From an uncultured Bacilli bacterium (lineage in GTDB: Bacteria; Bacillota_I; Bacilli_A; RF39; UBA660), in the NCBI GenBank assembly GCA_934162665.1, contig CAKPJN010000001.1:52834-116833 (forward strand): DNA of 64,000 nt, read 5' to 3'. Both the position numbers and the translations under genes were made by a program. Of this stretch, positions 57,696 through 59,078 are shown piece after piece. The first letter of the stretch is position 1. Every line of letters begins with the position of its first letter. The notes beneath the pieces are model-generated. The model worked only from the letters and a program-made list of their open reading frames with translations. It was not told the origin of the DNA and did not search any database.

Positions 57696-59078
57696 ATGTT
57701 ACAAAAACAAAAAGGTTGTAATGACATTACTGGGAGAGAAGCAAAGGTTTGGAAGTATGTAGAAAGTGTTATTGACGCTACTATGGAGAAGTATAATTAT
57801 AATTATATTCGTACTCCAATTATAGAAGCTACAGAGTTATTTCATAGGGGAATAGGAGAGTCTACTGATATTGTTTCTAAAGAGACATATGATTTTGTTG
57901 ATCGTGGTGGTAGAAATATAACACTTCGTCCAGAGGGAACTGCTGGTGTAGTTAGAAGTTATATTGAAAATAAAATGTATGGAGATCCTAATCAACCAGT
58001 TAAAGTATATTATAATGGAACAATGTATAGATATGAAAGACCACAAAGTGGTAGGGATCGTGAACTTACTCAATTTGGTATGGAGGTTTTAGGAAGTGAT
58101 GATCCACTTGTTGATGCTGAAGTTATTTCTTTAGCGGTTAATATTTATAAAATGTTAGGTTTAAAAGAAATCAAAGTAAATATTAATTCACTTGGAGATA
58201 ATGAATCTCGTCTTAAATATAGGGAAGTATTAGTTGATTATTTCAAGCCACATATAGATCTATTTTGTGATGATTGTAAAACTAGACTTGAAAAAAATCC
58301 ACTTAGAATATTAGATTGTAAAGTAGATAGTGAAAATGAAATATTAAAGAATGCTCCTAAAACAATTGATTATTTAAATGATTTTAGTAGAGAAAGATTT
58401 GAAAAAGTTCAAGAATATTTAGATATCATGCAGGTAGATTATGAAATTAACCCTAACATTGTTAGAGGATTAGATTATTATAATCATACAGTATTTGAAA
58501 TAGAAGCAAAAGTTGAAGGTTTTGGTAGTAACAATGTTTTAGGTGGTGGAGGAAGATACAATGGACTTTGTAGTCAATTGGATGGACCAGAAACTCCTTG
58601 TATAGGTTTTGCATCAGGTGTTGGAAGACTTGTACTTGCTTTAGAAAAAGAGAATGTTAAATTACCTATCGTAGATGGTATAGATTTATTCTTAATGTAT
58701 GTTAATGAAGAAGAAAAAAAGTATGCAGCTTATCTTTGTCAGGAGTTAAGAATGGCTGGATTTATTGTTGATACAGAATATACTGAAAGAGGTTTAAAAG
58801 GACAATTTAAGCAAGCTGATAGACTTAATGCAAAATATATAGCTGTTTTAAATAGTGAAGATTTAAATAATAATGAAGTTAAAATTAAAAATAATAAAAC
58901 AAAAGAGGAAGAAGTTATTAGTTTAGATGCTTTAATATATTACTTAGATGAAAAGTTAAATGCTTCTGATAATTTTGATGATTGCGATTGTGGTTGTGAC
59001 GATGATTGTTACTGTGATGATTCCTGCGATTGCGATGGTTCTTGTGGTGGAGATTGTCATTGCCATCATCATGAGTAA
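57696..59078 (+). CDS. hisS: histidine--tRNA ligase with an unusual C-terminal Cys/His-rich tail
   Basis: Class II motifs (FRRE-like region, GGGRYNGL); last 35 aa DCDCGCDDDCYCDDSCDCDGSCGGDCHCHHHE. Confidence 0.85.
   Translation: MLQKQKGCNDITGREAKVWKYVESVIDATMEKYNYNYIRTPIIEATELFHRGIGESTDIVSKETYDFVDRGGRNITLRPEGTAGVVRSYIENKMYGDPNQPVKVYYNGTMYRYERPQSGRDRELTQFGMEVLGSDDPLVDAEVISLAVNIYKMLGLKEIKVNINSLGDNESRLKYREVLVDYFKPHIDLFCDDCKTRLEKNPLRILDCKVDSENEILKNAPKTIDYLNDFSRERFEKVQEYLDIMQVDYEINPNIVRGLDYYNHTVFEIEAKVEGFGSNNVLGGGGRYNGLCSQLDGPETPCIGFASGVGRLVLALEKENVKLPIVDGIDLFLMYVNEEEKKYAAYLCQELRMAGFIVDTEYTERGLKGQFKQADRLNAKYIAVLNSEDLNNNEVKIKNNKTKEEEVISLDALIYYLDEKLNASDNFDDCDCGCDDDCYCDDSCDCDGSCGGDCHCHHHE

Follow-up and report, generated by a model that had tools for sequence, protein, structure and literature searches.

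The window analysed here, a stretch of 64,000 nucleotides (nt) from contig CAKPJN010000001.1 (positions 52,834 to 116,833) of an uncultured Bacilli bacterium (RF39; UBA660), contains hisS, a gene for histidyl-tRNA synthetase (HisRS). The product extends by about 41 amino acids (aa), residues 420-460, beyond the canonical enzyme as judged from Staphylococcus aureus HisRS (1QE0). Most of this extension is a core, CDCGCDDDCYCDDSCDCDGSCGGDCHCHHHE, which forms a metallothionein-like (CxC-x3)n array with a His cluster (HCHHHE) at its end. On balance, we consider it probable, though far from certain, that the tail is an autonomous metal-thiolate binding module, with zinc as its probable metal and HisRS as its carrier. 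A regulator specific to HisRS is less likely than such a module. Autonomous action is proposed because the module sits on unrelated carrier proteins and also occurs as a free protein, and a precise allosteric role on HisRS is disfavoured because of the extreme variation in tail length.

An earlier note, made from the sequence of this window, had described a 35-aa Cys/His-rich extension with 13 Cys and 4 His that started at position 58970. The terminal string quoted there agreed exactly with the end of the translated open reading frame (ORF), and the four His were counted correctly. The quoted 32-mer, however, contains 10 Cys instead of 13, together with 10 Asp, and the first codon of the 35-aa stretch (NFDD...HHHE) begins at 58971. 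The Cys/His-rich end is therefore retained, while the length is revised to about 41 aa, consisting of a 10-aa linker and the 31-aa core. Among the relatives, the linker form KLN(T/A)... is kept. Given that Cys accounts for 1.1% of the long ORFs in the window, the probability of finding at least 10 Cys in 31 aa was 9e-13, which rules out a chance occurrence. Other Cys-rich segments were absent from the six frames of the 64 kb, save for a weak 7-of-20 match in a non-coding frame, and neither a second Cys-rich protein nor a DUF1292 gene was found within the window. In the AlphaFold2 (AF2) model of the full HisRS, whose body was predicted with only moderate confidence owing to a shallow alignment, the predicted local distance difference test score (pLDDT) of the tail was about 30. 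This value is weak evidence, compatible with a peptide that may fold solely around metal.

The identical 460-aa protein was predicted on 12 contigs that come from different samples and in part exceed 0.2 Mb, and the best 120 database homologues (81-100% identity, 438-497 aa) all had a tail composed of Cys, His, Asp, Glu, and Gly. A scan of species representatives gave 80 loci from uncultured gut metagenome-assembled genomes (MAGs; 76-87% identity) with 79 complete hisS genes, and a Cys-rich tail of 19-132 aa with 4-41 Cys was encoded by 77 of them. The earlier note had named absence from all relatives and an assembly artefact as grounds on which the tail might be dismissed. The former is contradicted by all of the best 120 homologues and by 77 of the 79 related species, and the latter is excluded by the occurrence of the same protein on 12 independently assembled contigs. 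Further away, the tail is missing from P0121, the closest representative at the 50%-identity level (67% identical, 421 aa), whose body is otherwise very similar, and the majority of the 150 nearest HisRS representatives are also tail-less. The statement that such a tail is not a usual feature of HisRS is thus correct in general but does not hold within this lineage. A few distant tailed HisRSs were present among the 150 representatives, namely P0136 (41%), P0143 (41%), and P0133, which has a His-rich end. The locus of P0143 (L084, 4001-5425) has the gene order recJ-relA-hisS-aspS and a G+C (GC) content of 51.5%, as compared to 26.5% for the window, and its tail, which contains CQCQEGEGCEC, would either have been gained independently or represent an old, patchily distributed trait. 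The tail is lineage-wide here and patchy elsewhere, also outside AT-rich genomes. The idea that the tail arose from a neighbouring small gene fused to hisS was considered and found no support; in the tail-less P0121, hisS is followed by gatC and by no Cys-rich ORF.

Spacing and composition were evaluated for 150 distinct tails, with composition counted from the first Cys to the end. Successive Cys were spaced as CxC (46%), Cx3C (26%), CC (7%), and CxxC (4%), and the residues C (28%), H (16%), D (15%), E (14%), and G (14%) together made up 87% of the tails. Hydrophobic residues were nearly absent. The tails have the composition that characterises metallothioneins, in which Cys is arranged in CxC/CC arrays and aromatic or hydrophobic residues are few. 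A zinc ribbon or zinc finger was rejected, since CxxC makes up so small a share of the gaps, the length varies between 19 and 132 aa, and no Pfam zinc-ribbon family was matched.

The tails resemble the metallothioneins of PF00131 (vertebrate) and PF02067 (Diptera family 5) in their Cys content of ca. 28-30% with CxC/Cx3C spacing, in having few hydrophobic or aromatic residues, and in the absence of a predicted metal-free fold. Unlike these proteins, the HisRS tail is strongly acidic (Asp/Glu about 30%), capped by His, fused to an enzyme, and bacterial, and the unit CGCQ(D/E)GxECTC of the tail family is absent from PF00131 and PF02067. The tail of one relative (L046) reached the Pfam family Metallothio PF00131 with a borderline 23.5 bits against a cut-off of 23, and the small stand-alone members of the module family described below matched Metallothio_5 PF02067 at a sub-threshold level (20 vs 25 bits). 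Neither the tails nor the stand-alone proteins matched PF02069 (bacterial metallothionein), even at E <= 10. SmtA has a zinc-finger-like fold and a fixed length, unlike the HisRS tails, which are repeat-like and vary in length. At the level of the class, SmtA, BmtA, and PmtA (PF02069) are like the tails in being small bacterial proteins that contain Cys and His, and they are described as handling zinc (PMC10612145, PMC11237414).

Among the relatives, the tails are hypervariable in both sequence and length. In the tail of L057 (4273-4646), an 18-nt unit is repeated 20.8 times with 93% identity and encodes (DDCSCG)n with 41 Cys; this array is evidently a recent tandem expansion. Rates of change were obtained from 102 same-length tail pairs of 60-99% identity, which are not independent of one another, so that the following values are to be read qualitatively. 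The per-site change was 3.7% for Cys, 5.7% for His, and 7.8% for Gly, as compared to 19.7% for Asp/Glu and 16.6% for other residues. Change is ca. 4-5 times rarer at Cys/His positions than at Asp/Glu or other positions. This pattern indicates that purifying selection holds the Cys and His positions while the remainder of the tail turns over. In addition, His was found within the last six residues in 95% of the tails, and many relatives end with HHHHE.

The tails of this lineage are related to a module that is present in other proteins. The unit CxCx3CxCGCQ(D/E)GxECTC was found in the long tails of the relatives L003, L005, L012, L013, L020, L031, and L058, and a search with a long tail revealed the module inserted internally in DUF1292 proteins (P0328 and P0329; L081, 4382-4849). 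A metagenome scan gave 15 module loci on contigs of 22-59% GC. The module was located at the N-terminus of GrpE (L091 and L097) and of peroxiredoxin (L096 and L098), at the C-terminus of MinE (L088), in the N-terminal region of FtsY (L099), and in unknown acidic proteins (L095 and L101), and it also formed free-standing ORFs (L092-L094; also L106, 4001-4150). A profile search yielded more than 100 small stand-alone proteins (within P0334-P0451) of 35-64 aa with 10-18 Cys, whose consensus was MEEKKCNCxxxCTCGCQEGKECTCxxxCxCDExCTCGCQ. All of these proteins are hypothetical or unnamed, and no Pfam domain was detected in any of them. No Pfam or NCBIfam model covers the unit CxCx3CxCGCQ(D/E)GxECTC, a sequence search of the Protein Data Bank with the module profile gave nothing at E <= 10, and a literature search that included motif strings gave nothing relevant on the unit. 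The predicted structure of a stand-alone protein, based on an alignment of 67 sequences, had a pLDDT of 60 and lacked secondary structure. Neither the tail nor the stand-alone protein is predicted to fold autonomously, as expected for an apo-metallothionein. The stand-alone proteins are a candidate for a new bacterial metallothionein family.

The profile search also yielded two further groups of proteins containing the module, namely signal-peptide variants and a family of about 85 aa. P0368, P0382, P0405, P0427, P0437, P0439, and P0442 combine a signal-peptide or lipoprotein-like N-terminus with a Lys-rich module, suggesting that they are extracytoplasmic versions. The second group, of 80-91 aa (P0363, P0364, P0376, P0395, P0396, P0408, P0448, and P0449), some members of which are in Alphaproteobacteria MAGs, consists of an N-terminal Cys-rich module and the conserved C-terminal sequence ...KE(M/I)AFELC(K/R)TLIEGRTYT(A/S)E...; P0449 was present on 320 contigs.

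The affiliation of the window tail was evaluated with a hidden Markov model (HMM) constructed from 78 stand-alone proteins only, from which the HisRS tails were left out. The window tail scored 13.2 bits, while its shuffles scored -8.2 +/- 3.5 bits and none of 100 reached the score of the tail. The tails of L031, L089, and L058 scored 84, 47, and 45 bits, respectively, and the tail of P0143, a distant HisRS from the 51% GC lineage, scored 12.8 bits, which none of 200 shuffles reached. SmtA and the tails of SlyD and HspA were not matched by this HMM, and Drosophila MtnA was matched weakly (control sequences entered by hand). The stand-alone family and the HisRS tails have the same Cys spacing, and the long tails of the relatives contain the full unit. 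The window tail differs from the stand-alone family in that the Q(D/E)GxECTC centre is missing, Asp is abundant instead of Lys/Glu, a His cluster is added, and HisRS is the fusion partner. Judging from these sequence comparisons, the tail lineage as a whole clearly belongs to the module family, and in our reading the window tail is a putative shortened, Asp-rich, His-capped derivative of the module.

The surroundings of stand-alone genes were inspected in six distinct genomic contexts. In L106, the gene is located directly 3' of a Zip gene and a Cation_efflux/ZT_dimer gene of the same orientation, at a distance of 107 nt from the latter, and a divergent TetR gene lies upstream. In the context of P0388, a Cation_efflux/ZT_dimer gene is found two genes upstream. 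For a family that occurs once or twice per genome, the location of two out of six contexts beside zinc-type cation transporters is, by a rough estimate and in a small sample of six, far above expectation. The likeness to metal-binding tails that the earlier note had drawn is supported by the spacing and composition, by the selection on Cys and His, and by the related small-protein family with two of six members near Zip or cation diffusion facilitator (CDF) genes; this support is indirect.

The anatomy of the tail, its conservation, the pattern of selection, and the relationship of the tail lineage to the module family are results of the analysis described above. That the tail binds metal, which metal this is, and what the tail does in the cell are inferences, and we propose the following mechanism. 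The tail would protrude from the anticodon-binding domain at its solvent-exposed end. In the metal-free state it would be acidic, glycine-rich, and disordered, and its 10 thiolates and four terminal His would fold round a cluster of a thiophilic metal, most likely Zn(II), with Cu(I) and Cd(II) being possible. By analogy with metallothionein domains, the load may be roughly 3-4 Zn per chain. The tail would work largely independently, as a buffer, store, or sink of metal in the cytosol, with HisRS, which would be constitutively made and is T-box-regulated, as the carrier protein. During evolution, the module would have been fused to hisS in this lineage and then expanded and contracted by repeats, with selection keeping the Cys/His ligands.

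Several observations weigh against this proposal. The window tail matched no curated Pfam/NCBIfam family at E <= 10, its 13-bit match to the stand-alone profile is modest, and approximately half of the short tails of the relatives were indistinguishable from their own shuffles when evaluated with the stand-alone HMM. Four of the six contexts of stand-alone members had no metal-related neighbour, and no metal-related gene flanks hisS in the window. L052 and L059 have purely acidic tails with two His and no Cys (NTMEEVDEIDYSEFDLEHNHEEEE), and because of these tails the Cys array would be dispensable at least sometimes. Moreover, the buffer proposal gives no reason for the preference for HisRS, which was chosen as a carrier repeatedly. 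At least two further lineages, whose HisRS is about 41% identical and one of which has 51% GC, have a similar tail on the enzyme; these tails hint at a HisRS-specific factor, on which a pure carrier model is silent. A connection with the metal chemistry of histidine or with the binding of tRNA is possible.

The prominence of HisRS among the carriers counts in favour of a sensor that tunes HisRS activity, tRNA binding, or oligomerisation to the metal load or thiol oxidation, so that charging follows zinc or redox state. HisRS was the most frequent carrier, with three of the 15 loci in the metagenome scan and several fragments in other searches, and Cys-rich tails recur on HisRSs of about 41% identity (P0143/L084 with 51% GC, and P0136); in addition, an acidic tail on the anticodon-binding domain could conceivably compete with tRNA. 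The coupling of histidyl-tRNA charging to metal status, which the earlier note had raised, nevertheless fits poorly with the presence of the module on unrelated proteins and alone and with a length of 19-132 aa. This length range and the recent expansion to 20.8 copies of an 18-nt unit disfavour a defined docking geometry, Cys is wholly absent in two species, and the body of the closest tail-less relative, P0121 (67% identity), is very similar. We regard such a sensor as unlikely. The same variability would suit a functionless low-complexity expansion that arose by replication slippage at a permissive C-terminus, as would the fast turnover of sequence, the 18-nt tandem array in L057, and the two species without Cys. 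However, the Cys/His positions are 4-5 times more conserved than the neighbouring ones, the tail is kept in 77 of 79 species, the motif has been kept in genomes of 22-59% GC and on different carriers, and no tandem repeat was found in the DNA of the window tail. A neutral origin is, in view of these findings, quite improbable.

We assign a similarly low probability to a thiol redox buffer, a scavenger of oxidants or electrophiles, or an Fe-S ligand that stores neither Zn nor Cu. Peroxiredoxin is among the module carriers (L096/L098), the organisms are gut anaerobes for which a dependence on oxygen-sensitive [FeFe] hydrogenases has been reported (PMC7301438), and bacterial metallothioneins have been linked to the management of oxidative stress (PMC11237414). 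On the other hand, the conserved terminal His clusters and the Asp/Glu-rich composition point to metal ligation, and two stand-alone genes neighbour Zip/CDF transporters. CxC-x3 arrays are also not among the motifs known to ligate Fe-S clusters, which counts against an Fe-S ligand. The terminal His, HCHHHE in the window tail and HHHHE in many relatives, could also indicate storage of Ni or Co or its delivery to a metalloenzyme, as by SlyD, Helicobacter pylori GroES (HspA), and HypB; the His/Cys-rich C-terminus of SlyD binds Ni and Zn (PMC3292732). Yet Cys exceeds His in the tails (28% vs 16%), the spacing is of the CxC type and not of the His-run type, the stand-alone HMM misses the SlyD and HspA tails in the form entered by hand, and the related gut lineages RF39/RFN20 are described as having [FeFe] and not [NiFe] hydrogenases (PMC7301438). 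A role in Ni or Co handling appears very unlikely.

There is, finally, hardly any chance that the tail is an artefact, be it through an assembly error or through another frame encoding the real product. A hydrophobic ORF of 43 aa (58960-59091, + strand) overlaps the tail in the +1 frame. It was rejected as a real product and is regarded as a by-product of the TGY/GAY/CAY/GGN codon composition, which keeps the +1 frame open in 71 of 77 relatives; the peptide encoded there shows no conservation. Together with the identical protein on 12 independent contigs, the sequence data refute an artefact. AGG and CGG are reassigned in related orders, in which TGA is kept as a stop (PMC8629427, PMC7301438); the tail is free of AGG, CGG, and TGA codons, and an alternative genetic code behind it was rejected.

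The features of the hisS region are listed in Table 1. The hisS equivalog model TIGR00442 matched residues 3-409 with 469 bits (cut-off 286.75). The closest solved structure was 1QE0 (420 aa; E = 4.5e-141), with query residues 2-417 aligned to residues 2-418 of the chain, and the canonical protein stops at about residue 419. Since the model match, the catalytic core (PF13393), and the anticodon-binding domain (PF03129) are all present, the body is recognisable as a bona fide class II HisRS, in agreement with the earlier note.

Table 1. Coordinates of hisS, its parts, and the adjoining elements in the window
Feature	Position	Strand	Residues	Description
T-box leader of hisS-aspS	57488..57657	+		Rfam RF00230, 97 bits vs gathering score of 93
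hisS coding sequence	57696..59078	+		460 aa and TAA stop (59076-59078); class II HisRS with C-terminal extension
HisRS catalytic core	57714..58622	+	7-309	Pfam PF13393 tRNA-synt_His, E = 1.4e-40
HGTP_anticodon (anticodon-binding domain)	58689..58952	+	332-419	Pfam PF03129; canonical HisRS end
Acidic linker EKLNASDNFD	58953..58982	+	420-429	predicted AF2 helix 410-428 prolongs the last domain helix
Cys/His-rich core CDCGCDDDCYCDDSCDCDGSCGGDCHCHHHE	58983..59075	+	430-460	31 aa: 10 Cys, 4 His, 9 Asp
aspS, short non-discriminating type	59114..60433	+		NF003483, 474 bits; 35 nt 3' of hisS

The gene order in this region is secDF, relA, dtd, a permease gene, a 391-aa ORF, the T-box leader, hisS, and aspS, and the setting of hisS, with a T-box leader upstream and aspS downstream, matches the Firmicutes type. 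In one cmscan alignment, the specifier of the T-box appears to be GAC (Asp), with no His codon; if this specifier holds, the hisS-aspS operon would appear to sense the charging of tRNA-Asp. The aspS product is of the archaeal-like aspartate--tRNA(Asn) ligase type, which implies that Asn-tRNA is made by transamidation, and in a tail-less relative (L102) gatCAB is located directly 3' of hisS. In the six-frame scan of the window, aspS had no Cys-rich appendage. The 391-aa ORF (56292-57467, + strand) just 5' of the T-box leader contains an HExxH motif (HELGH) and matched no Pfam or NCBIfam family. It may encode an unannotated metallopeptidase, and it adjoins hisS in other assemblies as well (L116-L118).

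Metal-binding tails on housekeeping proteins (SlyD, HspA, and GroEL1) and metallothioneins are already known. Like other appended domains of aminoacyl-tRNA synthetases, the HisRS tail is an extra non-catalytic piece on a conserved body. Appended examples include the WHEP domain of eukaryotic HisRS and the structural Zn sites of other synthetases. The HisRS tail is, unlike WHEP-type domains, unfolded and not N-terminal, and it differs from a structural Zn(Cys)4 site of a synthetase in that CxxC pairs are rare (4%). The C-terminus of SlyD, domain B of HspA, and the tail of mycobacterial GroEL1 share with the HisRS tail, as proposed here, the design of a disordered metal-binding tail on an abundant chaperone or housekeeping protein (PMC3292732, PMC5116745, PMC10170517). 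Those tails are dominated by His and tied to Ni or Cu, whereas the HisRS tail is dominated by Cys with CxC spacing and is located on a synthetase; it showed no sequence relationship to the SlyD and HspA tails (comparison sequences entered by hand). A literature search gave no report of a Cys-rich tail on HisRS or of a metallothionein-like tail on a tRNA synthetase, and the metallothionein-like HisRS tail and the underlying module family appear to be undescribed. To our knowledge, bacterial metallothioneins are few, and they are essentially unknown in Firmicutes and gut anaerobes.

For synthetase biology, the tail represents a lineage-wide, selected, non-catalytic appendage of HisRS of an unreported kind. 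Should it prove inert, it would still be a striking case of composition-constrained, repeat-driven tail evolution, and L052 and L059 are natural variants without Cys that are useful for comparison. We also put forward, tentatively and as a doubtful extension of the carrier proposal, that the module constitutes a new and widespread metallothionein family of anaerobic gut bacteria, both free and grafted onto housekeeping proteins, with HisRS as the main zinc (or copper) buffer of the cell in this genome-reduced lineage. In that case, the metal may feed back on histidine charging, because HisRS gained tails repeatedly in separate lineages. The module could be a missing piece of zinc/copper handling in the gut microbiota.

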